The position numbers were made by a program, and so were the translations under genes. From a bacterium (GTDB lineage Bacteria > Sysuimicrobiota > Sysuimicrobiia > Sysuimicrobiales > Segetimicrobiaceae): a stretch of 64,000 bases of DNA. Below the pieces are notes generated by a model, which was given only the letters and a program-made list of their open reading frames with translations, made no database searches and was not told the origin of the DNA. Of this stretch, positions 1,754 to 17,660 are shown one piece after another. The stretch spans positions 3,312-67,311 of the forward strand of contig DASSJF010000038.1 of assembly GCA_035691305.1 (NCBI GenBank), written 5' to 3'. Position 1 is the first letter of the stretch. Each line of letters opens with the position of its first letter.

Positions 1754-2389
1754 TCAGTTCTTCGCGCTCTCCAGCTTCTGCTTGATTCGCTTCAGCCGGA
1801 AGACGTCTTCGCGGGCCCGCTGCTCCAGCACGTCGCGGATGTACCGGATCTCGCCGCGCACACGCGGGATCACGACCTGTTCCAGCGCGTTGACCCGGCG
1901 CGTCGTCTTCTTGATCTCTTCGCCGATCTTCCTCAACGTGATCTCAGTCCCGGCCACCTCGAGGAGCGCGTCCACGACGTCTTCGAACCGGTCGGCGCTC
2001 TCGATCGTGCGCGCCGACACGGACGCGGGATCGACGTTGCGCTCCAGCAGGGACCGCTTGACGCCGTTCGTCGCGATGCTGGGGATACGCGTGCCCCAGA
2101 CGTTCTTGGTGTCGATCCCGACCTCCAGGCGGCGGGGATCCGCCAGCGCGACGGCCTCGAGCGTCTCCCGGCCCTCGACGGCCTTGGTCAGCCCGAGCAG
2201 CGTGTAGGACTGCTCCGCGGACTGCGTGAGCTTCTCGCGCGCGGCCAGCGCCCGCCGCACGATATTGAAGAAGTCCGCCACAAGCGCGTCCCGCTTTTTC
2301 TTCAGGAGGTCGACACCCTGCTGCGCCAGCTTCACCTGGTTCTGGCGCTGCAGCAGGTTCATTCGGGTGGGGCTGATCGTCTCAGCCAT
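1754..2389 (-). CDS. atpD: V/A-type ATP synthase subunit D.
   Basis: 211 aa. MNLLQRQNQVKLAQQGVDLLKKKRDALVADF is the canonical NtpD/AtpD N-terminus. It is the last gene of the V-ATPase operon. Confidence 0.9.
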   Translation of the reverse strand: MAETISPTRMNLLQRQNQVKLAQQGVDLLKKKRDALVADFFNIVRRALAAREKLTQSAEQSYTLLGLTKAVEGRETLEAVALADPRRLEVGIDTKNVWGTRIPSIATNGVKRSLLERNVDPASVSARTIESADRFEDVVDALLEVAGTEITLRKIGEEIKKTTRRVNALEQVVIPRVRGEIRYIRDVLEQRAREDVFRLKRIKQKLESAKN

Positions 2390-2435
2390 AACGGCTTCTC
2401 CTCATGTTATCCGAGCGACGGAGGGGACCCCGCCC

Positions 2436-3851
2436 CTACCGCACCTCGCCGGGGCGGAACATCTTGTCGGCCTGCTCCCCGTAGTAGTACTTGTCTACGT
2501 GGTCGCGGCTGATGCGCGTCAGCGCGGTCTTCGGGAACACCGACAGCAGCTTCCAGCCGAGCGTCAGCGAGTCCTGAATGGAGCGGTCGCTGTTGCCTTG
2601 GTTGATGAACTCTTTCTCGAACGAGTCGGCGAACTTCAGGTACAGCCGGTCGTTCTCGGTGAGCGCCTCCTCACCGATGATCGCGACGAGTCGGCGGAGG
2701 TCGAGGCCCTGCGCGTACGCGGAGTAGAGCTGGTCGGCGACCTGCCGGTGGTCCTCGCGCGTGCGGCCCCGTCCGATGCCGTTGTTCATGAGCCGCGAGA
2801 GGCTCGGCAGCGGGTTGATCGGCGGGTAGATGCCCTGCCGGTGGAGCGGCCGCGCCAGCACGAGCTGGCCCTCCGTGATGTAGCCGGTAAGGTCGGCGAT
2901 CGGGTGCGTGATGTCGTCGTCCGGCATTGTGAGGATCGGGAATTGCGTGATCGTGCCCTTCTTGCCCTTGATGCGGCCGGCGCGCTCGTAGATGCTGGCG
3001 AGGTCGGTGTACATGTAGCCGGGGTAGCCGCGGCGCCCGGGGATCTCTTCGCGCGCCGCGCCGATCTCGCGCAGGGCCTCGCAGTAGTTCGTCATGTCGG
3101 TGAGGATGACGAGCACCTGCATGTCGAGCTCGTACGCGAGGTACTCCGCGACGGTGAGCGCGGTCCGCGGTGTCATCAGGCGCTCGATCGTCGGGTCGTC
3201 GGCCAGATTCATGAACACCACGCTGCGCGCGAGGGCCCCCGTCGTCTCGAACTCCTGGATGAAGAACGCGGCCTCGCGCTGAGTGATCCCCATCGCGCCG
3301 AACACGACCGAGAACTGCTCCGCCTCGCCGAGCACTTTCGACTGGCGCGCGATCTGCGCCGCGATCTCGTTCGCGGGCAGGCCGGCGCCGGAGAAGATCG
3401 GCAGCTTCTGGCCCCGGACCAGCGTGTTCATTACGTCGATCGTCGAGATGCCGGTTTGGATGAATTCCGCCGGCTTCTCCCGCGCCACCGGGTTGATCGG
3501 GGCGCCGAGGATCGGCAGGCGCTTCTCGGGGATGATCGGCGGCAGGCCGTCGATCGGATCGCCGAGACCGTTGAACCGCCGGCCGATCATCTCGCGGCTG
3601 ACGCCGATCCGCGCGACGTCCTCGCGCAGGCTGAGCGACGTTTTCGCGAGGTCCATGCCGCGCGTTTCTTCGAACACCTGGATGACCGCGTTTTTCTCCG
3701 AGACTTCGATGACCTGCCCGCCGCGCACGCTGCCGTCCTGCACGTGGATCTCGACGATCGCGCCGTAGGCGAGGTCCCGGGCGCCCTCGACAAACAGCAG
3801 CGGGCCCGAGATGTAGTTGATGCTCGTGTAGCGCTTGGTGGCGAGATCCAT
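2436..3851 (-). CDS. atpB: V/A-type ATP synthase subunit B.
   Basis: [23 protein letters not shown]...[12 protein letters not shown] and the non-catalytic B subunit fold. The start was set at the internal ATG because the Arg-rich N-extension in the ORF track is an artefact. Confidence 0.9.
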
Positions 3852-3852
3852 G

Positions 3853-5679
3853 TCAGCTCCTCCGCCCGTCGCCCGACGCCGCGCCCGCCGACGCCTGCGC
3901 ATCCCGCGGGCTCGTCCCCGCGGCGGCCTCGCCGCCTGCCTTCGCGAACGTCTGCGCGAGCCCGTCCATGAACTCCTTGAGCGCCGCCGGAAACTTGTCG
4001 TTCGGCACTTCCTTGAACCGCGCGATCCGCTCGTTCTGCGGCAGGTTGAGGATCTCGTCGATCGTCATCCCCCGCTGCAGACCCTCGAGCGAGGCTTCGT
4101 AGAACGCCCGGATCCCTTGGATCATCCCGTAGGCCTTCTCGAGCGAGCACGACGCGTCGACGTCGCTGAACGCGCTCTGCTGCAGGTAGAATTCACGGAT
4201 CATGCGCCCGGCCTCGATCACCATGCGCTCCGCGTCCTGGAGCGCGTCGGGGCCGACCAGTTGGACGACCTCCTGCAGGCCCGCCTCGCGCGCGAGGATC
4301 GCGCTCAGCCACGTGCGCTGGTCGGCGAAATCCTCCGCCACCTGCTTCGCGTACCACGGCGCGAGCAGCGCCTCGTACAGGCTGTAGGACCGGTTCCAGT
4401 TGATCGCCGGGAAGTGGCGGCGGTAGGCAAGCTGCGCGTCGAGCGACCAGAACGTGCCGACGATGCGCAGCGTGCTCTGGGTGACCGGCTCGGACAGGTC
4501 GCCGCCCGGCGGCGAGACGGCGCCGACGACCGTGACGGCCCCGATGCGCTCGTCCTTGCCGAGGACGACGGCGCGTCCCGCCCGCTCGTAGAACGCGGAC
4601 AGGCGGCTCGCGAGGTACGGCGGGTAGCCTTCCTCCGCCGGCATCTCCTCCAGGCGGGACGAAATCTCGCGCAGCGCTTCCGCCCAGCGGCTCGTGCTGT
4701 CGGCCATCAGCGCGACGCGGTAGCCCATGTCGCGGAAGTACTCCGCCATCGTGACCCCGGTGTAGATGCTGGCCTCGCGCGCCGCGACCGGCATGTTCGA
4801 GGTGTTGGCGACGAGGATCGTCCGCTCCATGAGCGGCCGGCCGTTGCGCGGGTCTTCGAGCTCCGGAAACTCCGTCAGCACGTCGGTCATCTCGTTGCCG
4901 CGCTCGCCGCAGCCGACGTAGACGATGATGTCGGCGTTGGACCACTTCGAGAGCGTCTGCTGCACGACGGTCTTGCCGCTGCCGAAGGGGCCGGGGACCG
5001 ACGCGGTCCCGCCCATCGCCACCGGGAACAGCACGTCCAGGATCCGCTGGCCGGTGATGAACAGCTCCGTCGGGTCGAGCTTGCGGGCGGCGGGTCGCGG
5101 CACGCGCACGGGCCACGTCTGCATCATCCGCAGCTCGGCGCCGTTCGTGAGGCGGGCGACGACATCGGTCACCGTGAAGTCGCCGCTCTTGATCTCGGCG
5201 ATCTCACCGGCCGGGGCGTCCGGCGGCACCATGATCCGGTGGGCGTAGGAGTACTCCTGGACCTCCCCGAGCACGTCGCCCGGCCCGACCCGCTCACCGG
5301 CCTTCGCCGACGCCTTGAACGCCCACTTTTTCGCCCGATCCAGCGAGTCGACGACCACGCCGCGCGAGATGAAGTCGCCCTGCGCGTCGCGGATCTTGTC
5401 GAGCGGCCGCTGGATGCCGTCGTAGATGCTGCTCAGCATGCCCGGGCCGAGTTCGAGGGCGAGCGGGGCTTCGGTCGACTCGATCGGCTCCCCGACGTAC
5501 AGGCCCGACGTGTCCTCGTAGACCTGGACGAACGCCGTGTCGCCGTCGAGGCGGATGATCTCGCCGATCAGCTTCTCCTTGCCGACGCGGACGATGTCGT
5601 ACATCCGCGCGCCGGCCAGACCTTCGGCGATGACCGCGGGGCCCGAGATACGCGTGATCTTGCCGGTTGGTGCCGCCAT
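3853..5679 (-). CDS. atpA: V/A-type ATP synthase catalytic subunit A.
   Basis: [20 protein letters not shown]... with Walker [10 protein letters not shown]. The chosen ATG is preceded by GGAGGAG. The upstream ATG at 5700 would give an ATGA overlap with atpF instead. Confidence 0.9.
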
Positions 5680-5696
5680 CCCTTCTCCTCCGTCTC

Positions 5697-6014
5697 TCAC
5701 CGCAGCTTGACGGCGAATCCGATGTGCTCCTTCACCAGCCTGGAAATGTACGCCTCTCCGGACTCAAGGTTCGCGCGCGCCGGGGGCAGCGGCACGATCA
5801 GCGGCAGGTCGCGGCCCCGCAGGAGCCGCGTCCGCGCGTCCTCGGTGCCGTGCAGCAGGTCTTCGTTCACCGCGAGCAGCCCGTAGCCGGCCGCGGTCAG
5901 CTCGCGGATCAGCTCGAGCGCCTGCTCGGGCGTGCCCGCCTCGCGGACCTCGACGCCCGCGAGACGGAACCCCGTCGCCGTCTCGGGATCGGTGATCACC
6001 GCGACCTTATACAT
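5697..6014 (-). CDS. atpF: V/A-type ATP synthase subunit F.
   Basis: 105 aa. [23 protein letters not shown] is typical of subunit F. Confidence 0.8.
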
Positions 6015-7032
6015 TCACGATCTCCTGGCGCGCGACGTCCGTCGCAAGCCCGAGCTGCCGCGCGTGCGCGATCACGCGCACGTTGGCGACTTCCGCCGCC
6101 TTGCGCGTGAGGTAGCCGACGACCACGTCGATGCCCAGCGGATCGCCGAGCAGCATCTGCGCGGCCATGCGCTGGACCCCGCGGTCGACGAACCGTTCCA
6201 TCTCGAGCAGGTCTTCCGTGCCCGTCAGATCCACGCCGAGGATCTTCGTGCCCTGGACGTCGGCGATGCTGGTCTGCGGATCGGCGAGTACGAGAAACCG
6301 CTCCCGCGAGATCGCACCGCCCAGCACGAAGAACTGGTCCCGCTCCTCGCGCGGGAGCTCCCGGATCCGCCGCAGACGCAGCGCGGTCTTGAAGTTCGTG
6401 GCGGTGACTTCCGCGCTGAGAAAGCGGCGGAAGCTCGTCTCGCCGTCCCCTTCGCCGTCGGCAACGCGGTAGCCGTACTGCGCGTACGCACGGTCGAGCG
6501 CGAGTTCGACGTCGAGCAGGCCGCCGCTCCGCTGCGCGGCATCCGCGCCTTCCCGCAGCGCCCGGCCCAGCGGATGCATCCAGGTCTGCAGCGTGTCCGC
6601 GATCGCGCGCAGGTCGGGCTGCTCGAGCAGCTCGCGCAGCCGGACCTCGCTGAGCGACCCGCCCGGGTAAAGGGTGGACAGGATGTCGTCGTCGGGCTTG
6701 TCCGTGTGCTTGCCGCGGACGATCGCGCGGATGTTCTGCAGATCATAGCGCAGCAGGACGACCTCGATCTGGCGCCGCTCCGCCCCGTCGGCAAAGCTCA
6801 GAATGCGGCGGGTCGCGTGGTAGAAGTTCTGCGCCAGCGCCTCGTCGATCGCCCGCACGCCGCCGAACCGGCTGAGGGCCTCCTGCAGCTCGGCGTTGTA
6901 CGGGGTGTCGACGAGCGCCTGAATAATCGCGGGGACATCCGGCGCCGCAAGCAGCTCCTCCAGACGCGACGGCGGAAGGAGCTGGGATTTCATGACCTTG
7001 ACCCGCGCGTTTATGTAGGAAAAATCACCCAC
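6007..7032 (-). CDS. atpC: V/A-type ATP synthase subunit C (eukaryotic d-like).
   Basis: 341 aa. MGDFSYINARVKVMKSQLL... matches the NtpC/AtpC family. Confidence 0.85.
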   Translation of the reverse strand: MGDFSYINARVKVMKSQLLPPSRLEELLAAPDVPAIIQALVDTPYNAELQEALSRFGGVRAIDEALAQNFYHATRRILSFADGAERRQIEVVLLRYDLQNIRAIVRGKHTDKPDDDILSTLYPGGSLSEVRLRELLEQPDLRAIADTLQTWMHPLGRALREGADAAQRSGGLLDVELALDRAYAQYGYRVADGEGDGETSFRRFLSAEVTATNFKTALRLRRIRELPREERDQFFVLGGAISRERFLVLADPQTSIADVQGTKILGVDLTGTEDLLEMERFVDRGVQRMAAQMLLGDPLGIDVVVGYLTRKAAEVANVRVIAHARQLGLATDVARQEIVNV

Positions 7033-7035
7033 GCC

Positions 7036-7623
7036 TCACCGGCTCCACAACGTCTCGGCGACCCGGGATACCATCTCCCGCCGGGCGTGGCTCAGGCGGC
7101 TACCGATCGTGTTCTCCACGACCACGCGGCCGTCCGGCGAGGCGACGCGGACACCGTCGGCGACGTCCCGCGCCTCGCGCACCTCGGCGTCGAGTCCGAG
7201 TTCGCGGCACGCGTCGCGAACCGTCTGGACGTCCGCGGGTGCCGTCTCCACCGTGAGGCGGCCGGAGAGGCCCCGCGCCGCCTCGCGCAGCAGCCCGCGG
7301 AGCACCGCGCCGCGCCGCTGCGAGTTGGCCCCGGCCGCGCCGGTGCGCAACTCGGCTTCCGCCTGCTCGAACACTTTGCGGATCGCCTCGTCTTTCGCGG
7401 CCAGCACGAGCGCGGCCGCGCGCAGGCTCGCGGTGCTGGTCGCCCGCGCCCGGGCCTGGGCCTGCTCCGCCTCCACGCGCCGGCGGGCCTCAGCCTCGAT
7501 CTCCTCGGCCTCCCGCGCCGCCGCCGCGGCGACCTCCTCGGCTTTGGCCTGCGCCTCGTTCAGCGCCTGGTCTTTCTCGACCCGCGCTTCCTGCTCGAGG
7601 AGCTGCATCAGCTGCGTTCCCAC
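7036..7623 (-). CDS. atpE: V/A-type ATP synthase subunit E.
   Basis: 195 aa. An Ala/Glu-rich coiled-coil N-terminus is followed by a globular C-terminus, and the gene sits between K and C in the operon. Confidence 0.7.
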   Translation of the reverse strand: MGTQLMQLLEQEARVEKDQALNEAQAKAEEVAAAAAREAEEIEAEARRRVEAEQAQARARATSTASLRAAALVLAAKDEAIRKVFEQAEAELRTGAAGANSQRRGAVLRGLLREAARGLSGRLTVETAPADVQTVRDACRELGLDAEVREARDVADGVRVASPDGRVVVENTIGSRLSHARREMVSRVAETLWSR

Positions 7624-7641
7624 GCGACCGCTCCGCCCGCC

Positions 7642-7965
7642 CTAGATCTTGCCGTACAGAAAGAACGCGATGACGAATCCGAAGATGACCAGCGTCTCGG
7701 GGATCACGAGCAGGATCAGCATCGTGCCGAACATCTCCGGCCGCTCGGCGATGACGCCCGCCGCCGCTCCGCCGATACGCGACTGCGCGATGCCGGTGCC
7801 GACCGCGCCGAGGCCGATCGCGAGGCCCGCGCCCACGCCCAAGAGGCCCGCCCCCGTGCCGGCCCCCGCCGCCTGCGCGGCCTGCTGCGCGCCCGCTCCC
7901 ATTGCCAAGAGCATCAGCCCGACGGCCGTCAGGCCGAGAACCGTCCACACTTTCCGAGACTTCAC
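7642..7965 (-). CDS. atpK: V/A-type ATP synthase proteolipid subunit K (c-ring).
   Basis: The C-terminal 107 aa of ORF 7642..8382 are Gly/Ala-rich TM helices ending VIPETLVIFGFVIAFFLYGKI. A GTG start follows GGTGGAG and gives a GTGA overlap with the atpI stop. Confidence 0.75.
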   Translation of the reverse strand: MKSRKVWTVLGLTAVGLMLLAMGAGAQQAAQAAGAGTGAGLLGVGAGLAIGLGAVGTGIAQSRIGGAAAGVIAERPEMFGTMLILLVIPETLVIFGFVIAFFLYGKI

Positions 7966-9917
7966 GCTCCACCCCCGCTGCGTTGAAATGGCCGGTACGG
8001 TCGACCGGTGTCCTGGTAGTATTTGAACTTGGAGAAAAACTCGACCCAGTTGAGCCGGGCGGGCTGCAGGATGTGCCCGATGATCGTCAGGCCGAAGAAC
8101 ATGATGTGCGCGACGGCGCCGACGAAAATGCCGATGATCAGCGCGGGCGCCTTCCCGCCGATGGTGTTCGCCACGATGGCGAGGGCGAGCGACGCGACGC
8201 CGACCGCGAAGATTCGGGCGTACGAGATGATCGCGCCGAACGTCGAGATCGATTCCATGATCCACATCGCGCTGCCGAAGCTGGCCGAGAACAGCAGCGA
8301 GAGGAGGAACAGCACCGCGCACCCCAGCATGACGGGGCTGAAGAACGACGACGGCAGCACGTGCACCTGCGTCGCGAGCCACAGGAACACCGTCGTCCCG
8401 CCGAAGAGAAGCGCCGCCGCCTCGAGAAATTCCGTCCGCTCACGGTGCCGGACGGCCTTCACCATCTCCATGAAGAGCCCGAGGTAGACCTGGGCGAGGC
8501 CGAAGCCCACCGACAGATAGAGGTAGGTATTGATCCCCTCGAGCCGGTCGAAAATCGGATGGAAGCCCGGGAACAGCCGCTGCGGAAGATCGCCGAAGAA
8601 CTCGCCGAAGACGATCCCGAAGAGGAACGTGAACGAGGTCATCCACGTGAGCAGCGCGACGACGCGCCGCATCACGACCGGCGTCAGCGTGAACCCGAAG
8701 TCCATGCCGGCCAGAACGACGCGCCACGGCTTCCCCGTCCGCGCCTTGCCCGCGAGCCACAGCGTGATTCCCAGCAGGAACAGGCCGTATCCGACGTCCC
8801 CGATGATGAGACCGACCCAGAGCGGCATCGAAATCGCGAACCAGATCGTCGGATCGAGCGTTCCGTACTTCGGCGGGTCGAAGATCGCGAGGAACATCTC
8901 GAACGGCTTGAGCCATCCGGGGTTGTCGAGCAGCACCGGCACGGCTTCCGCGTGGTGCACGGGGGCCGGCTCGTCGAAGACCATGACGCCGTCCGCGAAT
9001 CGCTTCTTGAGGCCCTCGCGCACCGCGGCGACGCGGGCGCTGGGCACCCAGCCGTATAGCACGAACGCGTACCGCGACTGCGGCGTCTGCGCCATCAGCT
9101 CGTAGCGGTGCACCGCGTCCCGCGCCACCACGGCGATCGCCGTCACTTCGGGCCGGTGCCGCCGGCTGAGCTCGATCAGCTGCCGCCGGCAATCCTCGAT
9201 CTCGCCCGGCAGCACGCGCGCCCGCTCCTGGAGGTGGGTCACGGCCTGCGGCAGCGGCATCCCGCGGACGCCGGCGGGCAGGCGGAGTTCGCTCGCCCCG
9301 GCACGGGTCAGCACGGGTCGCACCGCGTCCGCGTCGCGGCGGGCGTACGCCGCCACGACGGCGAGCCGGTGCGCGTCGAGCGCGCGGTTCACCACCTCGA
9401 CCCTGCCCTGCGTCGCCGCGGCCAGTTCGCCGCGCAGCGCCTCGAGCGCGCCCGGCTTCGCGTCGATGAGGAACCCGGCGGCCTCCAGCGTGCGGCTGCC
9501 CTGCAGCGGAGCCAGCAGGGGCGCGAGGATCTCGATCGCGCGCCCGTAGGCCTGGAGGATCTCCTGCTCCTCTTCCGCGTCCAAGAGGCGCCGCGTAAGA
9601 TCCTTGGCCTGCGTCTCCACGGCGTCGAGCCGCGCCCGCAGCGCCTCGGGCGACTGCGTTTCGTACGGTTCGGTGGACACGGGCGGAATCTCGAGGGCCG
9701 GGAGGAGCGCGAGAATCGCCTCGGCGCGGGTGCGCACCGCGTCGATCGTTTCGCGCGCCGCCTGGTCGCGTGCGTCGAGCGGCCGCGGGCCGATGCCGTC
9801 CTCGATCGGCCGGACGTGGTCGACATGCAGGCTGCCGAGGCCCTGAATCGCGCCGGCAACGTCCGCCTGCAGCCGCCGGGGCCCGAGCACGGTCACCCGG
9901 CTCATCGATACGATCAT
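7962..9917 (-). CDS. atpI: V/A-type ATP synthase subunit I (a-subunit, stator/ion channel).
   Basis: 651 aa with an N-terminal cytosolic coiled-coil domain and a C-terminal multi-TM domain. MIVSMSRVTVLG resembles the Thermus MIAPMEKLVL start. An ATGA overlap with the preceding small subunit gene is present. Confidence 0.85.
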   Translation of the reverse strand: MIVSMSRVTVLGPRRLQADVAGAIQGLGSLHVDHVRPIEDGIGPRPLDARDQAARETIDAVRTRAEAILALLPALEIPPVSTEPYETQSPEALRARLDAVETQAKDLTRRLLDAEEEQEILQAYGRAIEILAPLLAPLQGSRTLEAAGFLIDAKPGALEALRGELAAATQGRVEVVNRALDAHRLAVVAAYARRDADAVRPVLTRAGASELRLPAGVRGMPLPQAVTHLQERARVLPGEIEDCRRQLIELSRRHRPEVTAIAVVARDAVHRYELMAQTPQSRYAFVLYGWVPSARVAAVREGLKKRFADGVMVFDEPAPVHHAEAVPVLLDNPGWLKPFEMFLAIFDPPKYGTLDPTIWFAISMPLWVGLIIGDVGYGLFLLGITLWLAGKARTGKPWRVVLAGMDFGFTLTPVVMRRVVALLTWMTSFTFLFGIVFGEFFGDLPQRLFPGFHPIFDRLEGINTYLYLSVGFGLAQVYLGLFMEMVKAVRHRERTEFLEAAALLFGGTTVFLWLATQVHVLPSSFFSPVMLGCAVLFLLSLLFSASFGSAMWIMESISTFGAIISYARIFAVGVASLALAIVANTIGGKAPALIIGIFVGAVAHIMFFGLTIIGHILQPARLNWVEFFSKFKYYQDTGRPYRPFQRSGGGA

Positions 9918-10263
9918 GCCTGGCTCCCGAGAACCTCGCGGACGACGAGCTCGACCGCCTTGGCGCGCCGCTCCTCCGCCTGCTTGCGGATGGCCGCGGC
10001 TTCCGCCTCGGCGCGCGCCACGATTTCCTTCCCGATGCGCTCGGCCTCGCGTGACGCCTCCGCGGAGGCGCCGGACGCGATGTCGCGGGCGCGGTCGCGG
10101 GCCCGCGCGCGCAGTTCCTCGCCCTGCCGCTGTGCCTGTTCCACGCGCCGGGTAGCCTCGGCGCGAGCGTCGGCGACCTGGCGCTGCAGCTCCTGTTCGC
10201 GCTGCGCGATCTCGCGGAGCAGGGCTTCACCCGATTGACTGCCGGGGGAATCGTGTGCGGTCA
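9914..10263 (-). CDS. V/A-type ATP synthase small coiled-coil subunit (G/H-type), the first gene of the operon.
   Basis: MTAHDSPGSQSGEALLREIAQREQELQRQVADARAEA... is about 116 aa and Ala/Glu/Arg-rich. The ATG follows AGGAG. The upstream part of ORF 9914..10405 was rejected. Confidence 0.6.
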
Positions 10264-10284
10264 TCTCGCATGCTCCTGCGTGGA

Positions 10285-10338
10285 ACAAAAAAATACCGTC
10301 CGTAGACCGTGGTTGAGCCGCCTGCCGGCCCGCGGACG
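10285..10338 (-). promoter_or_regulatory. Terminator-like hairpin plus U7 tract inside the atp 5'UTR (candidate attenuator).
   Basis: On the minus-strand RNA, CGUCCG...CGGACG (perfectly complementary 6-mers flanking a GC-rich interior) is followed by GUAUUUUUUUG. It lies about 25 nt upstream of the atpG Shine-Dalgarno and downstream of the predicted promoter. Confidence 0.35.
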
Positions 10339-10360
10339 TTGGCGCTCCACTGCGGCCAAC

Positions 10361-10389
10361 ATCGTAACAACCCCCCAAAATGGTGTCAA
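10361..10389 (-). promoter_or_regulatory. Sigma70/SigA-like promoter of the V/A-ATPase operon.
   Basis: The minus-strand sequence is TTGACA-N17-TACGAT (CTTGACAccattttggggggttgtTACGAT), about 100 nt upstream of the atpG ATG. Confidence 0.4.
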
Positions 10390-10411
10390 GAAAGAAGCCA
10401 AACAACGGTTC

Positions 10412-10500
10412 GACGACGCCGTCGCATACCGACGGCTAGTCCCGCACCGGGGCGACGCCGTCGCATGCCGACGCCTAGTCCCGCGCCGGGGCGACGCCGG
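10412..10500. repeat. Tandem 39-bp GC-rich imperfect-palindrome repeat (about 2.3 copies) between the nuoN stop and the atp promoter.
   Basis: GACGACGCCGTCGCATACCGACGGCTAGTCCCGCACCGG / GGCGACGCCGTCGCATGCCGACGCCTAGTCCCGCGCCGG / GGCGACGCCGG. Each unit contains the self-complementary GCGACG-G-CGTCGC core. Confidence 0.6.
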
Positions 10501-10503
10501 TGT

Positions 10504-11985
10504 CTAGATCTTCAACAGCAGTGATGCCGCCTGGGCGAAGCGGATGAGCGCATCCGGGAAGAACCCCGGCACGAGCGCGCCCGCGGCCGTCACGGCCAGC
10601 ACGCCCCGCAACAGCGGCGTCTCGACCGGCCCGCCGAGCGGCTCGCCGGCCGGAGGTGCCGCCGGTTCGCCGCCGGCGGCGGGCATCTGCCACATCGCCC
10701 GGATGACGCCCACGTAGTAGTAGAGCGACACCACGCTGTTGATGATGCCGACCACGGCCAGCCAGAGGAACCCGGACTGAATCGCGGCGCTGAAGAGAAA
10801 CACTTTTCCCCAGAACAACGCGGTCGGCGGAATGCCTGTGAGGGCGAGCATGAACGCGGCCATCAGCGTCGCCGAAAACGGCGATCGCTGGCCGAGCCCG
10901 GCGTAGCCCGCGATCGCGTCCGTGCCGCTCGCCCGGGCTACGGCGATGGCGACGGTGAAGGCGCCGATGTTGGTGAAGAGGTAGCCCATCAGGTAGAACA
11001 GCAGCGCCGAGACCCCGGAGCCGAGCACCCCCGGCCCGGCGGAGAGCGCCACGACGCCGATCAGCATGTACCCGGCGTGCGCAATCGAGCTGTACGCGAG
11101 CATCCGCTTGATGTTCGACTGCGACAGCGCGAGCAGATTGCCGAACGACATGGAGAGCACGGAGATCGCGGCGACGATGCCGACCCACGCCCCCGGCGGC
11201 AGCGCCACGTAGAGCATCCGCAGCAGGGCGGCGAAACCTGCGGCCTTGCTGGCCACCGACAGAAAGGCGACGATCGGCGTCGGGGCGCCTTCGTACACGT
11301 CCGGCGTCCACTGGTGGAACGGCACCGCGGAGATCTTGAACCCGAACCCGGCGAGGATCAGCACGACCGCGACCACGAGGAACCCCGGCTGGGCGGCTCC
11401 GAGCCGCGAGGCCAGCGCGTAGATGTTCGTCGTGCCGGTTGCCCCGTACAGGTACGTGAAGCCGTACAGCATCACGGCCGACGCCGCGGCGCCGTAGAAG
11501 AAGTACTTCACACCGGCCTCGCTGCTCTTCCGGTTCGCCTTCAGGGCGCCGGCGAGCACATACGAGATCAGCGACACCCACTCGATCGCGAGGAACAGCA
11601 CGATCAGATCGGCCGCCGCCGCCATCGCGAACAGGCCGAGCACCATGAACACGATGAGTACGTAGATGTCGCCCTCGTGCGCCGTCGGGTGGTCCCGGAA
11701 AAAGTCCATCGCCGCGGCGATGACGAGAATCGCGCTCAGGATCGCGACCACCTTGAAGAAGCCGGCGAACGGGTCGACCGCGTAGGTGTCGAACACCACG
11801 AGGTACCGCGGGCCGCCGATCAGCACCGCGGAGGGGCCGAGCGTGAACGCCAGGCCGATGATCGCCGTCCACCCCACGAGGCGGCGGTCTTCCGGCGCGA
11901 CGATCAAGTCGATCACGAGCAGGCCGAGGGCCAGGATCCCGACCGTGATCTCGGGCAGCAGGGGCCGGAGGTCGATTCCCGTCAC
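10504..11985 (-). CDS. nuoN: NADH-quinone oxidoreductase subunit N (antiporter-like).
   Basis: 493 aa, multi-TM, typical NuoN/ND2 sequence (…AFLSVASKAAGFAALLRMLY…). Confidence 0.9.
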   Translation of the reverse strand: MTGIDLRPLLPEITVGILALGLLVIDLIVAPEDRRLVGWTAIIGLAFTLGPSAVLIGGPRYLVVFDTYAVDPFAGFFKVVAILSAILVIAAAMDFFRDHPTAHEGDIYVLIVFMVLGLFAMAAAADLIVLFLAIEWVSLISYVLAGALKANRKSSEAGVKYFFYGAAASAVMLYGFTYLYGATGTTNIYALASRLGAAQPGFLVVAVVLILAGFGFKISAVPFHQWTPDVYEGAPTPIVAFLSVASKAAGFAALLRMLYVALPPGAWVGIVAAISVLSMSFGNLLALSQSNIKRMLAYSSIAHAGYMLIGVVALSAGPGVLGSGVSALLFYLMGYLFTNIGAFTVAIAVARASGTDAIAGYAGLGQRSPFSATLMAAFMLALTGIPPTALFWGKVFLFSAAIQSGFLWLAVVGIINSVVSLYYYVGVIRAMWQMPAAGGEPAAPPAGEPLGGPVETPLLRGVLAVTAAGALVPGFFPDALIRFAQAASLLLKI

Positions 11986-11995
11986 CGGCCGGCCC

Positions 11996-13504
11996 TCATC
12001 GCACGAGGTTGAGGATGCCCAGCATTGCCGCGTTGATCGTGTTGACGACCGGCGCGGGATAGAGCCCGACGGCGATCATCAACGCGGCCAGCGGCGCGAG
12101 CGTCCACGCCTCACGACCGTCCAGATCGGGGAGTCCGGCCCACTTCGCGTTCAGCGGCCCCCAGAAGATGCGGTAGATCGTCCAGAGGAAGAACGCGACC
12201 GTGATCACGACGCCGACGAGCGACACGACGGTCAGCGCCGGATAGACCTGGTAGGCGCCGAGGAAAATCGAGAACTCCGCCACGAACCCCATCAGCCCCG
12301 GCAGACCGAGCGACGCCAGCATCGCCAGCATCGTGAGTCCCGTGTACACCGGGAGGCGCTCCCACAGGCCGCCGAAATCGTTCACGCCGCGGGTGTGCGC
12401 CCGGTAGTCGTAGATCACGCCGACGAGGAAGAACAGCGCCCCGGTGATCACGCCGTGCGCCAGCATCTGCATCGTCGCGCCGTTCAGGGCGATCGCCGCG
12501 GCGTTGCGCAGCGCCGGCTGCCCTTCCGCGGCGGCCGCCGCGGCGACGCCGAGCATCACGTAGCCCATGTGGTTGACGCTCGAATAGGCGACGAGCTTCT
12601 TCAGATCCGTCTGCGCCATCGCCACCAGCGCGCCGTAGACGGCCGCGATCGCGGCGAGAACCGCCACCATGCCCGCCATGAGGTGGAAGGCGCCCGGCAG
12701 CAGCGGCAGCAGGATACGCACGAAGCCGTAGGTGCCGAGCTTCAGGAGGATCGCGGCCAGCAGAACGCTGCCGGCGGTCGGCGCCTCGACGTGCGCGTCC
12801 GGAAGCCAGGTGTGGAACGGGAACATCGGCACCTTGATGGCGAAGCCGAGGAAAAAGCCCCAGAACGCCAGGGTGGCGAGGTGCAGGTCCCCCGCCAGCG
12901 GCTTCTGCTGGAAGAGCGCCACTATGTCGAACGTCCGCGGCGAGGAGTGGAAGTACACGATCAGGATCGCCAGCAGCATCGCCAGCGAGCCGACCAGCGT
13001 GTACAGGAAAAACTTGACCGCGGCGTAGACCCGGCGCGGCCCGCCCCAGACGCCGATGATGAAGTACATCGGGATGAGGCTGACCTCCCAGAACACGTAG
13101 AACAGAAAGAAGTCAAGCGCCAAGAACACGCCGAGCATCCCGGTCTCGAGCAGCAGAAACAGCATCATGTACTCTTTCGGCCGGAGATCCACGCGCCACG
13201 AGTACACGACGCACAGGAGCGTGAGCAGCGTCGTCAGCACCACGAGCGGCAGGCTGAGGCCGTCGACGGCCAGATGGTACGTCGCGCCGAGGGACGGAAT
13301 CCAGCGCGCCTGCTCGGTCAGCTGCAGAGTCCCCGCGCGGCCGAAGTCGAACGCGGCCGCCGCCCACACCGAGGCGAGGAAGTCCGCGATCGCCGCGGCG
13401 AGGGCGACGAGACGGATCGTGCGTACCTGCCCGCGCGGCACGGCGAGCAGCGCGGCGGCGCCGGCGGCGGGGATCCAGAGGACGAGGCTCAGCACGCCGT
13501 TCAC
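11996..13504 (-). CDS. nuoM: NADH-quinone oxidoreductase subunit M (antiporter-like).
   Basis: The C-terminal about 502 aa of ORF 11996..15184 are NuoM/ND4-like (…FFLFYVFWEVSLIPMYFIIGVWGG…). A GTG start gives a GTGA overlap with the nuoL stop, and the long N-extension was rejected. Confidence 0.85.
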   Translation of the reverse strand: MNGVLSLVLWIPAAGAAALLAVPRGQVRTIRLVALAAAIADFLASVWAAAAFDFGRAGTLQLTEQARWIPSLGATYHLAVDGLSLPLVVLTTLLTLLCVVYSWRVDLRPKEYMMLFLLLETGMLGVFLALDFFLFYVFWEVSLIPMYFIIGVWGGPRRVYAAVKFFLYTLVGSLAMLLAILIVYFHSSPRTFDIVALFQQKPLAGDLHLATLAFWGFFLGFAIKVPMFPFHTWLPDAHVEAPTAGSVLLAAILLKLGTYGFVRILLPLLPGAFHLMAGMVAVLAAIAAVYGALVAMAQTDLKKLVAYSSVNHMGYVMLGVAAAAAAEGQPALRNAAAIALNGATMQMLAHGVITGALFFLVGVIYDYRAHTRGVNDFGGLWERLPVYTGLTMLAMLASLGLPGLMGFVAEFSIFLGAYQVYPALTVVSLVGVVITVAFFLWTIYRIFWGPLNAKWAGLPDLDGREAWTLAPLAALMIAVGLYPAPVVNTINAAMLGILNLVR

Positions 13505-15372
13505 CACACCAGCCTGACGACGACGATGAGGACGACGCCGAGGAACACGATCAGCAGATAGGTCTCTTCGCGCCCGGTCTGCAGATAGCGCAGGCCGAGC
13601 CCGAACCACCGGGCCAGCCAGCCGATCAGGTTCACGAGGCCGTCGACGACGTGGCGGTCGAACAACCCGGCGAGCCGCATCACGACGCCGCCGATTCCGA
13701 GGAAGACCCAGGCATAGAGGTCGTCGACGAAGTAGCGCCGCGCGAGCAGCGTATACAGCCACGGCAGCGCCTGCCGCAGCGACTCGGACGGCACGACGCG
13801 CCAGACATAGATCGCCGCGGCCGCGACCCAACCGGCGACGGCGATCGCGATCGACCCGAGGAGCAGGCCGAAGTTCGGCGGCGCCGGCTCGACGCCGGGG
13901 AAGTTGATGAACTTCTCGAACGGGTTGCCGAGCGACTCGGCGCCGATCCAGCCGAGAAACACCGCGAAGACGGCGAGAATCACGAGGGGCGCGACCATCA
14001 CGGCGGGGCTCTCGTGCGGACCGCCGTGCCCGTGCGCGGCCGCCGCGTGGGGATCGCCGCCGCGGTACGTGCCGGCAAACGTGTACCAGAGGAGGCGGCC
14101 CATGTACAGCGACGTGAGGAACGCCCCCGCCGCACCGACCGCCCACAACGCCCGGTTGTGCGCAAACGCCGCGGCCAGGATCTGATCCTTGCTGAAGAAT
14201 CCGGCGAACGGTGGAATGCCGGTCAGCGCGAGCGTCGCGGCGACGAACGTCCAGGTGGTCCACGGCAGGTACCGGGCCAATCCGCCCATCTGCTTCATGT
14301 CGTTGGTCGCGACGGCGTGGATCACGCTCCCGGCGCCGAGGAAGAGCAGCGCCTTGAAGAAGGCGTGCGTGATGAGGTGGAACATGCCGGCGGTGTAGCC
14401 GAGAACGCCGAGGCCGAGCATCATGTAGCCGAGCTGGCTCATGGTCGAGTACGCCAGCACGCGTTTGATGTCGTTCTCGACCACCCCCATCGTCGCCGCG
14501 GCCAGCGCGGTGACCCCGCCGATCCAGGCGACGACGGTCAGTCCCGCCTGGCCCGTCGTGAACAGGAAGAGCGGATAGGTGCGGGCGACGAGGTAGACTC
14601 CGGCGGCGACCATCGTCGCAGCGTGGATCAGCGCGCTGACCGGTGTCGGGCCCTCCATCGCGTCGGGCAGCCAGACGTGCAGCGGGACCTGGGCCGACTT
14701 GCCGACCGCGCCGCCGAAGACCAAGATGGCCGCGGCGGTCAGGAGCGGCCCGGCGAGCGAGCCGGTGTGGATGCCCTTGAACACTTCGTCGAACCGCAAC
14801 GAGCCCGTGTGGAGGAAGATGATCAGGATGCCGATCATCATCGAGAAGTCGCCGACGCGGGTCGTGATGAACGCCTTGAGCGCCGCCTTCGCCGCGGCCG
14901 GCCGTTCGAACCAGAACCCGATCAGCAGGTAGGAGCACAGGCCGACGAGCTCCCAGCCGGCGTAGATGAACAGAAAGTTGTCGGCCAGGACCAGGAACAG
15001 CATCGAGAACTGGAACAGCGACAGGTACGCGAAGAACCGCGGGTAGTGCTCGTCGCCGGCCATGTAGCCGACCGAATAGATCGTGATGAGTGACGAGACC
15101 ACGCCGACCATCGCCAGCATGATCGCGCTCAGCGGATCGACGACGAAGCCGACCGTGATCGGCCGGCCGCCGAGCACCGCCCACGTATAGGTGATATCGG
15201 CACGCGCCCCGCCGGCCACCTCGCCGAGCACGACCAGGCCGCCGAGCCCCGCCAGCACGATGCCGGCGATCGAGACGTAGGCGCCGCGGCCCCGGAGGCG
15301 CGGCCCGACGGCCGTGATCGTCGCGAACGCCGCGAGCGGCAGCAGCGGGATGATCCAGGCGATGTGGGTCAC
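13501..15372 (-). CDS. nuoL: NADH-quinone oxidoreductase subunit L (antiporter-like, long horizontal helix).
   Basis: 623 aa. MTHIAWIIPLLPLAAF... with NuoL/ND5 motifs. Confidence 0.9.
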   Translation of the reverse strand: MTHIAWIIPLLPLAAFATITAVGPRLRGRGAYVSIAGIVLAGLGGLVVLGEVAGGARADITYTWAVLGGRPITVGFVVDPLSAIMLAMVGVVSSLITIYSVGYMAGDEHYPRFFAYLSLFQFSMLFLVLADNFLFIYAGWELVGLCSYLLIGFWFERPAAAKAALKAFITTRVGDFSMMIGILIIFLHTGSLRFDEVFKGIHTGSLAGPLLTAAAILVFGGAVGKSAQVPLHVWLPDAMEGPTPVSALIHAATMVAAGVYLVARTYPLFLFTTGQAGLTVVAWIGGVTALAAATMGVVENDIKRVLAYSTMSQLGYMMLGLGVLGYTAGMFHLITHAFFKALLFLGAGSVIHAVATNDMKQMGGLARYLPWTTWTFVAATLALTGIPPFAGFFSKDQILAAAFAHNRALWAVGAAGAFLTSLYMGRLLWYTFAGTYRGGDPHAAAAHGHGGPHESPAVMVAPLVILAVFAVFLGWIGAESLGNPFEKFINFPGVEPAPPNFGLLLGSIAIAVAGWVAAAAIYVWRVVPSESLRQALPWLYTLLARRYFVDDLYAWVFLGIGGVVMRLAGLFDRHVVDGLVNLIGWLARWFGLGLRYLQTGREETYLLIVFLGVVLIVVVRLVW

Positions 15373-15379
15373 CGCGCGG

Positions 15380-15691
15380 TCACCACTTCATCAGGTTGAT
15401 CTCGTCGACGTAGACCGTCTCGAGGGTCCGGTACGCGGCCAGCACGAGCGCCAGGCCGACCGCGGCTTCGCACGCCGCGAGTGTGATCACGATCAGCGCG
15501 AAGATCTGGCCCTGCATCGCCCCCGGCGCGGCGTACTTGTTGAAGGCGACCAGGTTGATGTTGGCGGCGTTCAGCATCAATTCGACGCCCATCAGGATCG
15601 TCACGGCGTTGCGGCGCGTGACCACCGCGAACAGCCCGAGCGCGAAGAGCAGCGCGCTCACGACGAGGTAGTGCGCGAGGCCCGGCATCAA
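15380..15691 (-). CDS. nuoK: NADH-quinone oxidoreductase subunit K.
   Basis: 103 aa with 3 TM helices. MMPGLAHYLVVSALLFALGLFAVVTRRNAVTILMGVELMLNAANINLVAF is classic NuoK/ND4L. Confidence 0.85.
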   Translation of the reverse strand: MMPGLAHYLVVSALLFALGLFAVVTRRNAVTILMGVELMLNAANINLVAFNKYAAPGAMQGQIFALIVITLAACEAAVGLALVLAAYRTLETVYVDEINLMKW

Positions 15692-16182
15692 TCTTCCCGC
15701 CGCGCGATCATGATCGCGCCCATCAGCGAGATCAGCAGGACGATCGACGTACCTTCGAAGACCAGAATGTTCTGACGGAGAAAGCTCTGCCCGATCGCCC
15801 CGGGCGTGTACGGCGGCAGCGCGCCGGCGCCCGCGGGCCAGCCGGTGCGCGTCGAGACGGCGATCAGCAGCGCGGCCATCGCTGCGGCGACCGCGGTGCC
15901 GATCGCAGCCTGCTCGTTGCGCTGCCGGCCCCCGAGCCCCGTGCCGCCTTCGGTCAGCATGATCGCGAAGAGGATCAGCACGGTGATCGCGCCGGCGTAG
16001 ATCAGGACCTGGATGCCGGCCACGAACTCGGCGTTCAGCAGAATGTACAGGCCGGTGACGCCGAGGAACGCTGGCACGAGGGCCGCGGCGCTGTGCACGA
16101 TGTTGCGGCTGGCGACCACCACCACGCCGGCGCCCAGCGTGACGGCGGCCAGCACGTAGAAGGCGATCGCCTCGCCGGTCAC
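15688..16182 (-). CDS. nuoJ: NADH-quinone oxidoreductase subunit J.
   Basis: The C-terminal 164 aa of ORF 15688..16755 (VTGEAIAFYVLAAVTLGAGVVVVASRNIVHSAAALV...) are NuoJ/ND6-like. The GTG start gives a GTGA overlap with the nuoH stop, and the Arg-rich N-extension was rejected. Confidence 0.8.
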   Translation of the reverse strand: MTGEAIAFYVLAAVTLGAGVVVVASRNIVHSAAALVPAFLGVTGLYILLNAEFVAGIQVLIYAGAITVLILFAIMLTEGGTGLGGRQRNEQAAIGTAVAAAMAALLIAVSTRTGWPAGAGALPPYTPGAIGQSFLRQNILVFEGTSIVLLISLMGAIMIARRED

Positions 16183-17159
16183 GGGTGTCCCACCACCACG
16201 ACGAACGCGGTCACGACGAGGTTGAGCACGGACACCGGGATCAGGACCTTCCAGGAAAAGTTCAGCATCTGGTCGATCCGGAAGCGCGGATACGTCCACC
16301 GCACCCACATGAAGACGAAGATCAACGCGTACAGCTTGATGACGAACCACAGCACCGGCGGCAGCACCGGCCCACGCCAGCCGCCGAGGAACAGCGTAAC
16401 CGCCATCGCCGCCATCGCGAACATCTCGCCGTATTCGCCGAGCTGAAACAGCGCGAACCGCATCCCGCTGTATTCGGAGAAGTAGCCGGCGACCAGCTCG
16501 CTCTCCGCCTCGACCAGGTCGAACGGCACGCGGTTCACCTCGGCGATCGCCGCGATGAGGAAGATCAGAAAGGCCACGGGCTGGGCCACGATGTACCACA
16601 GACGCGCCTGGCCGTTGACGATCGTTACGGTCGACAGCGACCCCGCCATCAACGCGACCGTCACGAGCGCGAGCCCGATGGGGATCTCGTAGGTGACCAT
16701 CTGCGCGGCCGATCGCATGCCGCCGAGCAGGGCGTATTTGTTGTTCGATCCCCATCCCGCCATCAGGATGCCGATCACGACCAGCGACGAGGTCGCCGCG
16801 AAGTACAGCACGCCGATGTTCAGATCGCGGAAGATCAGCGGCCCGGACCGCGTGGTGCCGAACGGAATGACGACGTAGTCGAGCAGCGCCGCCAGCGGCA
16901 CGACGACGACCGCGCTCGCGAAGATGAGGCGGTCGGCGCGGTTCGGGACGATGTGTTCCTTCTGCAGAAGTTTAACCGTGTCGGCCACGGTCTGCAGCAG
17001 GCCCTGCGGCCCGACGTGCTTCGGCCCGAGGCGGCTCTGCATCCACGCGCTGATCTTGCGTTCGAGCAGCACGCCGAACATGACCGCGATGAACGCCACC
17101 GCGGAAAAGATGATGATCGTGCCGACGAACGCGCGGAGGATCTCCCAGAGCCAGTCCAT
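16179..17159 (-). CDS. nuoH: NADH-quinone oxidoreductase subunit H.
   Basis: 326 aa. ...QSRLGPKHVGPQGLLQTVADTVKLLQKE... and ...EVNRVPFDLVEAESELVAGYFSEYSG... are hallmark NuoH/ND1 motifs. Confidence 0.9.
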   Translation of the reverse strand: MDWLWEILRAFVGTIIIFSAVAFIAVMFGVLLERKISAWMQSRLGPKHVGPQGLLQTVADTVKLLQKEHIVPNRADRLIFASAVVVVPLAALLDYVVIPFGTTRSGPLIFRDLNIGVLYFAATSSLVVIGILMAGWGSNNKYALLGGMRSAAQMVTYEIPIGLALVTVALMAGSLSTVTIVNGQARLWYIVAQPVAFLIFLIAAIAEVNRVPFDLVEAESELVAGYFSEYSGMRFALFQLGEYGEMFAMAAMAVTLFLGGWRGPVLPPVLWFVIKLYALIFVFMWVRWTYPRFRIDQMLNFSWKVLIPVSVLNLVVTAFVVVVGHP

Positions 17160-17165
17160 CGCCGC

Positions 17166-17522
17166 CTAAGTCCACTCCAGGGCGCCGCGGCGCCACGCGT
17201 AGGCGAGGCCGAGCACCAGGATCACAAGAAACACCAACATCTCCCAGAACGCGAGCGGGCCGAGGCTGCGCGCGACCACCGCCCAGGGGTACAGGTAGAT
17301 GATCTCGACGTCAAACACGACGAAGACGAGCGAGAACAGGTAGTAGCGAACGTGAAACTGCGACCACGCCTGGCCGATCGTAGGCACGCCCGACTCGTAG
17401 GTCTCGAACTTCTGCGGGTAGTCGCTGCGCGGCGAGATCAGCCAGATGATGAGCAGAGGGAGCGAGACCATCCCCGCGCCGACGAGCGCGAAGATGGCGA
17501 CGTAGCCCCAATCGAGCAGCAT
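17166..17522 (-). CDS. nuoA: NADH-quinone oxidoreductase subunit A.
   Basis: 118 aa, NuoA/ND3-like (…FETYESGVPTIGQAWSQFHVRYYLFSLVFVVFDVEIIYLYPWAV…), preceded by the Shine-Dalgarno AAGGAGGGA. Confidence 0.85.
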   Translation of the reverse strand: MLLDWGYVAIFALVGAGMVSLPLLIIWLISPRSDYPQKFETYESGVPTIGQAWSQFHVRYYLFSLVFVVFDVEIIYLYPWAVVARSLGPLAFWEMLVFLVILVLGLAYAWRRGALEWT

Positions 17523-17630: not shown

Positions 17631-17660
17631 ATGGTAGTATCCGTCGCCGAAGCGTGTCAA
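17631..17660 (-). promoter_or_regulatory. Sigma70/SigA-like promoter upstream of nuoA.
   Basis: The minus-strand sequence is TTGACA-N18-TACCAT in the 160-bp gap between the yvcK stop and nuoA, so the nuo membrane-arm cluster has its own promoter. Confidence 0.45.

Follow-up and report, generated by a model that had tools for sequence, protein, structure and literature searches.

The stretch of DNA analysed here (the window: 64,000 nt of contig DASSJF010000038.1, assembly GCA_035691305.1) carries two bioenergetic gene clusters one behind the other on the minus strand: nuoA-H-J-K-L-M-N (17522..10504), for the membrane arm of a complex I-type enzyme, followed by atpG-I-K-E-C-F-A-B-D (10264..1754), for a V/A-type ATPase. 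The arrangement is very probably a lineage-conserved tandem of two standard oxidative-phosphorylation operons, with the quinone module (Q-module) of complex I encoded elsewhere and the atp operon equipped with a promoter of its own. It is most likely not a physical or ion-converting supermodule of the two machines.

As we read the tandem, nuoAHJKLMN would be a membrane-arm operon that has become separated from the genes for the quinone-reducing arm (NuoB/C/D/I, with or without NuoE/F/G) of the same complex I-type enzyme. Those genes would lie at another place in the genome, and the assembled enzyme would pump protons like any complex I. The product of atpGIKECFABD, by homology and published gene tables a Thermus-type V/A-ATP synthase, would convert the proton gradient into ATP. 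Transcription of the atp operon would start at a sigma-70-type promoter of its own within the 239 bp that separate the clusters, and would pass through a leader hairpin with a U tract. The tandem itself would be an inherited gene order, with at most some read-through or co-regulation of the maker and the user of the gradient.

Gene content of the two clusters

Genes were identified with Pfam and NCBIfam models and a codon-usage gene call over the whole 64 kb, the G+C content of which (approximately 70%) crowds mechanical lists of open reading frames (ORFs) with spurious frames. Gene content, order, orientation and coordinates were all as given in an earlier reading of the window (the original prediction), and the spacer of 240 bp reported there, from the nuoN stop codon to the atpG ATG, was counted as 239 bp (10265-10503). 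The nuo genes are as follows:

17166..17522, minus strand: nuoA, 118 aa; PF00507, E 1e-36; best NCBIfam model NuoA
16179..17159, minus strand: nuoH, 326 aa; PF00146, E 6e-121; NF004741 (NuoH) 358 bits against a cut-off of 305
15688..16182, minus strand: nuoJ, 164 aa; PF00499; best NCBIfam models NuoJ; overlaps the nuoH stop
15380..15691, minus strand: nuoK, 102-103 aa; PF00420
13501..15372, minus strand: nuoL, 623 aa; PF00361 and PF00662; NF005141 (NuoL) 678 bits against a cut-off of 556
11996..13507, minus strand: nuoM, 503 aa; PF00361; TIGR01972 571 bits against a cut-off of 264
10504..11985, minus strand: nuoN, 493 aa; PF00361; TIGR01770 370 bits against a cut-off of 333

All of the Nuo subunits read as canonical complex I orthologues in which the functional residues are retained. 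The scores of NuoH, NuoL, NuoM and NuoN exceed the curated cut-offs of the NCBIfam complex I models. The alignment of NuoH with E. coli NuoH (7nyh_H) spans the entire protein and shows the acidic EAExEL / EYSGM stretch to be kept, both membrane glutamates of NuoK are present in the translation (GVELMLNA, AACEAAVG), and residues E135, K217, K247 and K394 of NuoN are invariant across 36 homologues. The original prediction had described NuoL, NuoM and NuoN as Mrp-like antiporter subunits. They do have the PF00361 fold of MrpA/D in common with the Mrp (Mnh/Pha) antiporter, but they score as complex I proteins: the NCBIfam models for MrpA/D reach 140-314 bits against the Nuo proteins, far under their cut-offs of 540-1100 (for NuoL, the MrpA models give at most 314 bits against cut-offs above 900), and neither Pfam nor the gene call of the window revealed any MrpB/C/E/F/G-like gene.

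The nuoA-nuoH gap is 6 bp and nuoJ overlaps the nuoH stop, so nuoI does not lie between the latter two and the cluster leaves no space for nuoB/C/D/I. The absence of a redox module from the block, pointed out in the original prediction, extends to the entire window: none of nuoB/C/D/I/E/F/G was found anywhere in the 64 kb by the gene call or by tblastn with NuoD and NuoI. The nuoA-N genes of E. coli and the nqo1-14 genes of T. thermophilus each form a contiguous operon, whereas here the same membrane subunits are encoded without peripheral-arm genes.

The atp genes are as follows:

9914..10264, minus strand: atpG, peripheral-stalk subunit G, 116 aa; PF16999, E 6e-12
7962..9917, minus strand: atpI, stator subunit I/a, 651 aa; PF01496 and PF18670
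7642..7965, minus strand: atpK, c-ring subunit, 107 aa; PF00137
7036..7623, minus strand: atpE, 195 aa; PF01991
6007..7032, minus strand: atpC, subunit C/d, 341 aa; PF01992, E 1e-60
5697..6014, minus strand: atpF, 105 aa; PF01990
3853..5679, minus strand: atpA, catalytic subunit A, 608 aa; PF00006, PF16886, PF22919 and PF02874
2436..3851, minus strand: atpB, subunit B, 471 aa, no intein; PF00006, PF22919 and PF02874
1754..2389, minus strand: atpD, central-stalk subunit D, 211 aa; PF01813, E 1e-50

The full V/A subunit set, A, B, D, F, C(d), E, G, I(a) and K(c), is contained in this one operon with one Pfam match each. AtpA contains the domain inserted in A subunits (PF16886, E 2.5e-26) and the Walker A motif GPFGSGKT; AtpB is 80-97% identical across the lineage, and a gene of 114-120 aa is called at the position of atpG in relatives. 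The operon resembles that of the Thermus V/A synthase (PDB 5gar, 6qum), which likewise has nine subunits in the order atpG-I-K(L)-E-C-F-A-B-D, and its gene order is identical to that of the Thermus oshimai, Meiothermus and Oceanithermus operons. AtpI can be aligned along its whole length with 5gar_N, the subunit I of T. thermophilus (E 3e-96), and SYARIFAVG and HILQPARLNWVEFF are among the conserved stretches; SYARIFAVG / QPARLNWVEFF aligns with SHIRIYAVG / QPIRLIWVEFF of Thermus, and both arginine motifs are kept. The best PDB match of AtpK is T. thermophilus subunit K (99 residues, E 3e-21), in which GTGVAQARIG / LLPETLVIFG corresponds to GTGIAQSRIG / VIPETLVIFG of the window protein. The two proteins therefore share a glutamine in helix 1 and a PET motif in helix 2; the window AtpK differs in its longer, Ala/Gly-rich N-terminal extension.

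Thermus subunit K is a single hairpin, and the V/A enzyme to which it belongs is an H+-driven ATP synthase and the only rotary ATP synthase of Thermus. The carboxylate of AtpK and the arginines of AtpI are, by the Thermus structures, what we take to be the essential residues of the ion path. The original prediction had proposed to read the coupling ion from the K-ring. The AtpK residues are the same as those of the Thermus enzyme, but on sequence alone the Q...ET pattern leaves Na+ possible; because the Thermus enzyme has the same Q/E/T residues, the motif does not decide the ion specificity. None of the sequence features hints at an ion other than H+, which falls short of proof.

In two deep-branching relatives (L095:16025-19015 and L099:16030-18987), atpB is interrupted, in frame, by an insert of roughly 430-530 codons at ...TDMT(N/S)Y|C...SN|CE(A/S)LREI.... 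The LAGLIDADG-like blocks of this insertion (LGLVASDGTV, LRGYFDGDG) indicate an intein with a homing endonuclease.

Conservation of the tandem in the lineage

A profile scan of genome contigs with a NuoN alignment listed a single close relative, L001, and, at 37-51% identity, 79 distant nuoN loci; the latter come from many phyla and served as an outgroup sample, not as a sampling of the lineage. Among relatives found from the NuoN side, atpG-I-K-E-C-F-A-B-D follows nuoN in L001 (NuoN identity 80%), L081/L082 (70%), L083 (66%) and L084/L085 (59%); the NuoA of L001 is 96% identical to that of the window. A scan of metagenomes with AtpI gave 31 loci, 17 of which reach far enough upstream to be judged, and nuoN precedes atpG on the same strand in all 17, down to identities of 53% for NuoN and 37% for AtpI. 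The adjacency is thus present in 23 of the 23 related loci that could be assessed. Recurrence in other genomes had been named in the original prediction as an argument for a real system, and the evolutionary association of bioenergetic modules that it offered as one of its readings is indeed real and lineage-wide.

The conservation is not confined to the nuo-atp junction. The yvcK-nuoA and atpD-(Clp1)-DUF881 junctions are kept in every locus long enough to display them, and the whole conserved block reads holin4-rapZ-yvcK-nuo-atp-(Clp1)-DUF881. As the flanking junctions are as constant as that between nuo and atp, what has been conserved is a run of four or more transcription units unrelated to one another, and not nuo plus atp specifically.

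A conserved predicted promoter in the spacer

Four elements were located upstream of nuoA and in the spacer between the two clusters:

17631..17660, minus strand: putative promoter 5' of nuoA, TTGACA-18-TACCAT, 10/12 match to the sigma-70 consensus, 139 nt before nuoA
10436..10499, minus strand: GC-rich direct repeat in two copies, directly after the nuoN stop, with predicted hairpins
10361..10389, minus strand: predicted atp operon promoter, TTGACA-17-TGTTACGAT, 10/12 match, extended -10 (TG) present
10286..10337, minus strand: leader hairpin with a U7 tract, 3' of the promoter and 5' of the atpG ribosome-binding site

The spacer promoter was read as TTGACA-17-TACGAT, with TACGAT as the -10 element, and 0.0 such matches were expected in shuffled sequences. 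On the coding strand between 1600 and 17800, matches of 10/12 to the sigma-70 consensus occur only twice, before nuoA and before atpG. An element similar to that before nuoA, TTGACACG...TAC(C/G)AT, precedes nuoA in L081, L083, L086 and L087, and of 24 related spacers, 22 have the atpG promoter. When 21 spacers were aligned, the invariant columns were exactly TTG.C and G.TA...T, while the 17-nt stretch between the -35 and -10 elements and the flanks were variable. This is a textbook phylogenetic footprint of a predicted promoter. In uninterrupted loci the nuoN stop lies 0-184 nt from the -35 element, and the segment between the two is not conserved among relatives.

The region between nuoN and the promoter has been interrupted in some relatives. 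In L081/L082 (11450-12815), a 1.3-kb insertion with an ORF on the opposite strand lies between nuoN and the intact promoter; the ORF has no Pfam match, and the insertion was called insertion-sequence-like only because its ends are repeated and, by eye, roughly inverted. A 1.47-kb insertion occupies the same place in L098 (5539-7007) and carries an opposite-strand ORF with HTH_29 and a weak rve_3 (integrase-core) match. In L097, the uninterrupted sister of L098, the promoter abuts the nuoN stop. Judged from these sequences, the two insertions are independent and both have left the predicted atp promoter untouched. That two independent interruptions spare the promoter of the only ATP synthase listed for the lineage argues that the atp operon is independent of nuo transcription. 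A single nuo-atp transcription unit was accordingly judged unlikely, given the conserved predicted promoter of the spacer and the insertions with opposite-strand ORFs in L081/L082 and L098.

Downstream of the promoter, the leader contains a predicted stem (10298-10337) followed by GGUAUUUUUUUG; the deep clade has CCCCCAGGG-loop-CCUGGGGG in the corresponding part of the leader, with UUUCUUG after it. The alignments of both clades (soil and deep) predict a hairpin plus U tract at this position, and one is visible in 21 of the 21 leaders compared; the GC hairpin lies 20-35 nt from the promoter and has the same position in L001, L081, L083, L084 and L086-L107. The element resembles an intrinsic terminator located after the promoter, and in L097 and L102, in which the promoter abuts nuoN, it is the first terminator-like element after nuoN. 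Covariation in the hairpin is weak (0/12 pairs in the soil clade, 4/10 in the deep clade), the z-score of the leader fold (-1.85) is not significantly better than that of shuffled sequences, and a search of the spacer against Rfam gave no match. The leader element may be an attenuator of atp, a terminator shared with nuo, or a stabiliser of the 5' end combined with a U-rich enhancer of translation; as the covariation is weak and the folds are not significant, a structured regulatory RNA is not claimed.

The repeat that follows nuoN has the core CGGCGTCGCCCCGGYGCGGGACTAG in copies 39 bp apart, and an exact-pattern search of the 64 kb found no further copy. It is not conserved in relatives, and its fold (z -1.1) is no better than those of shuffled sequences.

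The lineage and the rest of complex I

Proteins homologous to NuoN, with identities of 55-88%, occur in metagenomes and in metagenome-assembled genomes (MAGs) labelled 'Armatimonadetes/Armatimonadota bacterium'. One of these assemblies, GCA_031459555.1, corresponds to locus L084, which has the same nuo-atp block and a NuoN of 59% identity, and is listed under its GTDB phylum, p__CSP1-3, in the supplement of PMC11604079. The lineage is therefore probably the phylum CSP1-3 / Sysuimicrobiota, as judged from the labels of homologues and the shared block.

KEGG counts for CSP1-3 MAGs are given in Table S5 of the same paper, 45 of its 112 MAG columns being visible; the statements that follow refer to those columns. 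The Q-module is represented by nuoB twice, nuoC and ndhJ once each, nuoD and ndhH once each, and nuoI twice, nuoE/F/G are each present once, and the membrane subunits have approximately two copies each. A V/A-type ATPase is present once, the rows for the F-type enzyme, about which the original prediction had asked, are empty, and separate mrp genes are listed. These copy numbers suggest that members of the phylum have two complex I-type enzymes and that the membrane arm of one is split off. The main text of another paper on CSP1-3 (PMC11962464) contains nothing on nuo or ATPase.

The V/A enzyme is thus probably the only rotary ATP synthase of the cell, a further likeness to Thermus. Its Thermus-like residues, together with the lack of an F-type ATPase among those listed for the phylum, suggest an H+-driven synthase.

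Comparison with loci outside the lineage

Outside the lineage the tandem was not encountered in the same form. Among the matches listed, none of the 79 distant nuoN loci, which include split clusters, shows a V-type operon in the 10 kb that follow nuoN, unlike the window. In none of three Thermaceae (Thermus oshimai, Meiothermus, Oceanithermus) does nuo lie upstream of the V/A operon; the position is occupied by a divergent methyltransferase gene in these organisms and by nuo in the window.

A related pairing was found in a Candidatus Poribacteria MAG (L043, JADFGN010000071.1, 5147-14687), where nuoN shares its strand with a complete F-type atp operon that begins 284 bp past the nuoN stop. Its order is atpI-B-F-H-A-G-D-C (atpI, a, b, delta, alpha, gamma, beta, epsilon), the gene for the c subunit being under the listed ORF size. 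The tandem was not seen in the Poribacteria loci L013 and L035, for which approximately 10 kb downstream of nuoN is available, or in L020, for which only approximately 0.5 kb is. The L043 tandem indicates that the pairing of complex I with an ATP synthase can arise independently with another type of synthase. In the unrelated genomes examined, then, the adjacency of nuo and a V-type operon, about which the original prediction had asked, did not recur; a counterpart with an F-type operon did appear.

The nuo half of the tandem has more company. Among the matches listed, nuoA is directly followed by nuoH-J-K-L-M-N in 12 of the 79 distant loci (L002, L014, L025, L029, L031, L033, L037, L045, L054, L056, L059 and L072), which are mostly from Anaerolineae and include one Methanosarcinales archaeon. 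Tblastn detected neither NuoD nor NuoI in the window or its related loci, and likewise neither of them in the 10 kb around these 12 clusters. None of the 12 clusters has a rotary ATPase operon after it. Partial nuoAHJKLMN operons have also been reported for Salinispora, Streptomyces and Kocuria (PMC6676996); as in the window, they consist of the seven genes A-H-J-K-L-M-N, without B, C, D, I, E, F and G. The actinomycete cluster is an extra copy beside a complete nuoA-N operon, whereas the visible columns of the KEGG table suggest, for the lineage of the window, two complete sets of parts with only one N-module (NuoE/F/G). The split nuoAHJKLMN is a recurring and known layout.

In several of the 12 loci, the starts of nuoM and nuoN are approximately 3 kb apart, which leaves room for an extra antiporter-like gene.

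Alternative explanations

The most far-reaching alternative is that of the original prediction, in which a redox-less Nuo arm would act as an ion translocator or antiporter together with the V/A-ATPase and interconvert H+ and Na+ gradients. In its favor are the lack of redox-arm genes in the 64 kb and in every related locus, the conserved adjacency, an AtpK motif that leaves Na+ possible, and the suggestion that the partial nuoAHJKLMN operons of marine actinomycetes are stand-alone pumps (PMC6676996). Against it, NuoA, NuoH, NuoJ and NuoK show full conservation, which extends to the acidic stretch of NuoH. We know of no role for these four subunits without a quinone module. In the KEGG table, the two copies of each Q-module gene match two membrane-arm sets, Mrp is listed separately, and the V/A enzyme, as the sole rotary ATPase listed, would be expected to run as a synthase (PMC11604079, visible columns). 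In their key residues AtpK and AtpI agree with the Thermus enzyme, a separate predicted promoter precedes the atp operon, insertions between the clusters are tolerated, and flanking genes are retained equally well. Ion conversion by the pair is therefore very improbable. Independent regulation, canonical components and further nuo genes elsewhere in the genome, which figured in what the original prediction held to speak against its supermodule, largely describe the present picture; an adjacency unique to this genome, which it named alongside them, does not.

A purely regulatory link was also considered, in which nuo read-through, tuned by the hairpin and U tract, would couple expression of the pump and the synthase, with the internal promoter as a second input. 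Such a super-operon is consistent with the common strand, the short distance from the nuoN stop to the -35 element, the adjacency in 23/23 loci, the hairpin and U tract in 21/21 leaders, and the analogous F-type tandem (284 bp) of Poribacteria L043. It is also consistent with L097 and L102, in which the -35 element begins 0-1 nt past the nuoN stop, so that no terminator precedes the promoter. However, insertions of 1.3-1.5 kb with opposite-strand ORFs have been tolerated in two lineages, which implies that read-through is dispensable, and the junctions with the functionally unrelated yvcK and DUF881 are equally conserved. The low covariation and the unremarkable fold of the hairpin also count against a tuned element, and the leader could equally be a 5' stabiliser and U-rich translation enhancer. 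On balance the super-operon is unlikely, and we consider it improbable in general that the Nuo arm is tied to the V/A-ATPase, be it as an ion-converting partner or through a read-through/attenuator circuit that sets the pump:synthase ratio phylum-wide. The opposite extreme, a frozen accident of a slowly rearranging region with no regulatory or functional consequence, would fit the retention of the whole block from holin4 to DUF881 and the absence of the tandem outside the lineage (0/79 among the matches listed; 0/3 Thermaceae). It overlaps largely with the explanation that we prefer, weak co-regulation would look alike at the level of sequence, and the independent tandem in L043 hints at repeated pairing; in its strict form it is very improbable.

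The simplest explanation for these observations remains an inherited tandem of two standard operons, and several points weigh against it. The adjacency survives deep divergence (AtpI identities of 37-42%), more than random gene order usually does, which makes a selective advantage, such as co-regulation, possible. In L097, where the promoter abuts the nuoN stop and the sole terminator-like element lies downstream of it, nuo transcripts may enter atp. The placement of nuoB/C/D/I elsewhere in the genome rests on KEGG counts for MAGs of the phylum (45 of the 112 columns of the PMC11604079 table), and the assignment of the window to CSP1-3 on the labels of homologues and shared synteny.

Both machines are of known kinds, and their presence in CSP1-3 has already been tabulated (PMC11604079, visible columns). 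The nuo-atp tandem and its promoter/leader footprint are, as far as we could find, undescribed; the tandem changes nothing in how either machine is thought to work, and as it stands it matters little. If read-through control or physical coupling were shown, it would bear on how cells balance the generation of a proton gradient against its use. For annotation, the cluster should not be taken for a redox-less ion machine, and the split nuoAHJKLMN deserves recognition as a recurring operon type. The footprint TTGAC-17-TGnTAnnnT provides a usable promoter model for this high-GC lineage.

Neighboring genes

The two clusters are surrounded by housekeeping genes. Upstream (5') of nuoA lie sucCD, a gene for a holin-4-family membrane protein, rapZ and yvcK (CofD family), and 3' of atpD a gene for a Clp1-type P-loop protein is followed by DUF881. 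The Clp1-type gene (819-1724, minus strand) starts 29 bp after atpD; its product, of 301 aa, has the P-loop domain of Clp1, an mRNA-processing kinase of eukaryotes and archaea (PF16575, E 2e-36). Members of the soil clade have this gene (L001, L083, L086, L087, L093 and L094); the deep clade is without it, and there DUF881 directly follows atpD. Further upstream, the region 20501-50800, mostly on the minus strand, appears from a reading of the translations to encode ordinary central metabolism: sucCD, mdh, sdhBAC, icd, a histidine-biosynthesis cluster and an ilv/leu cluster.

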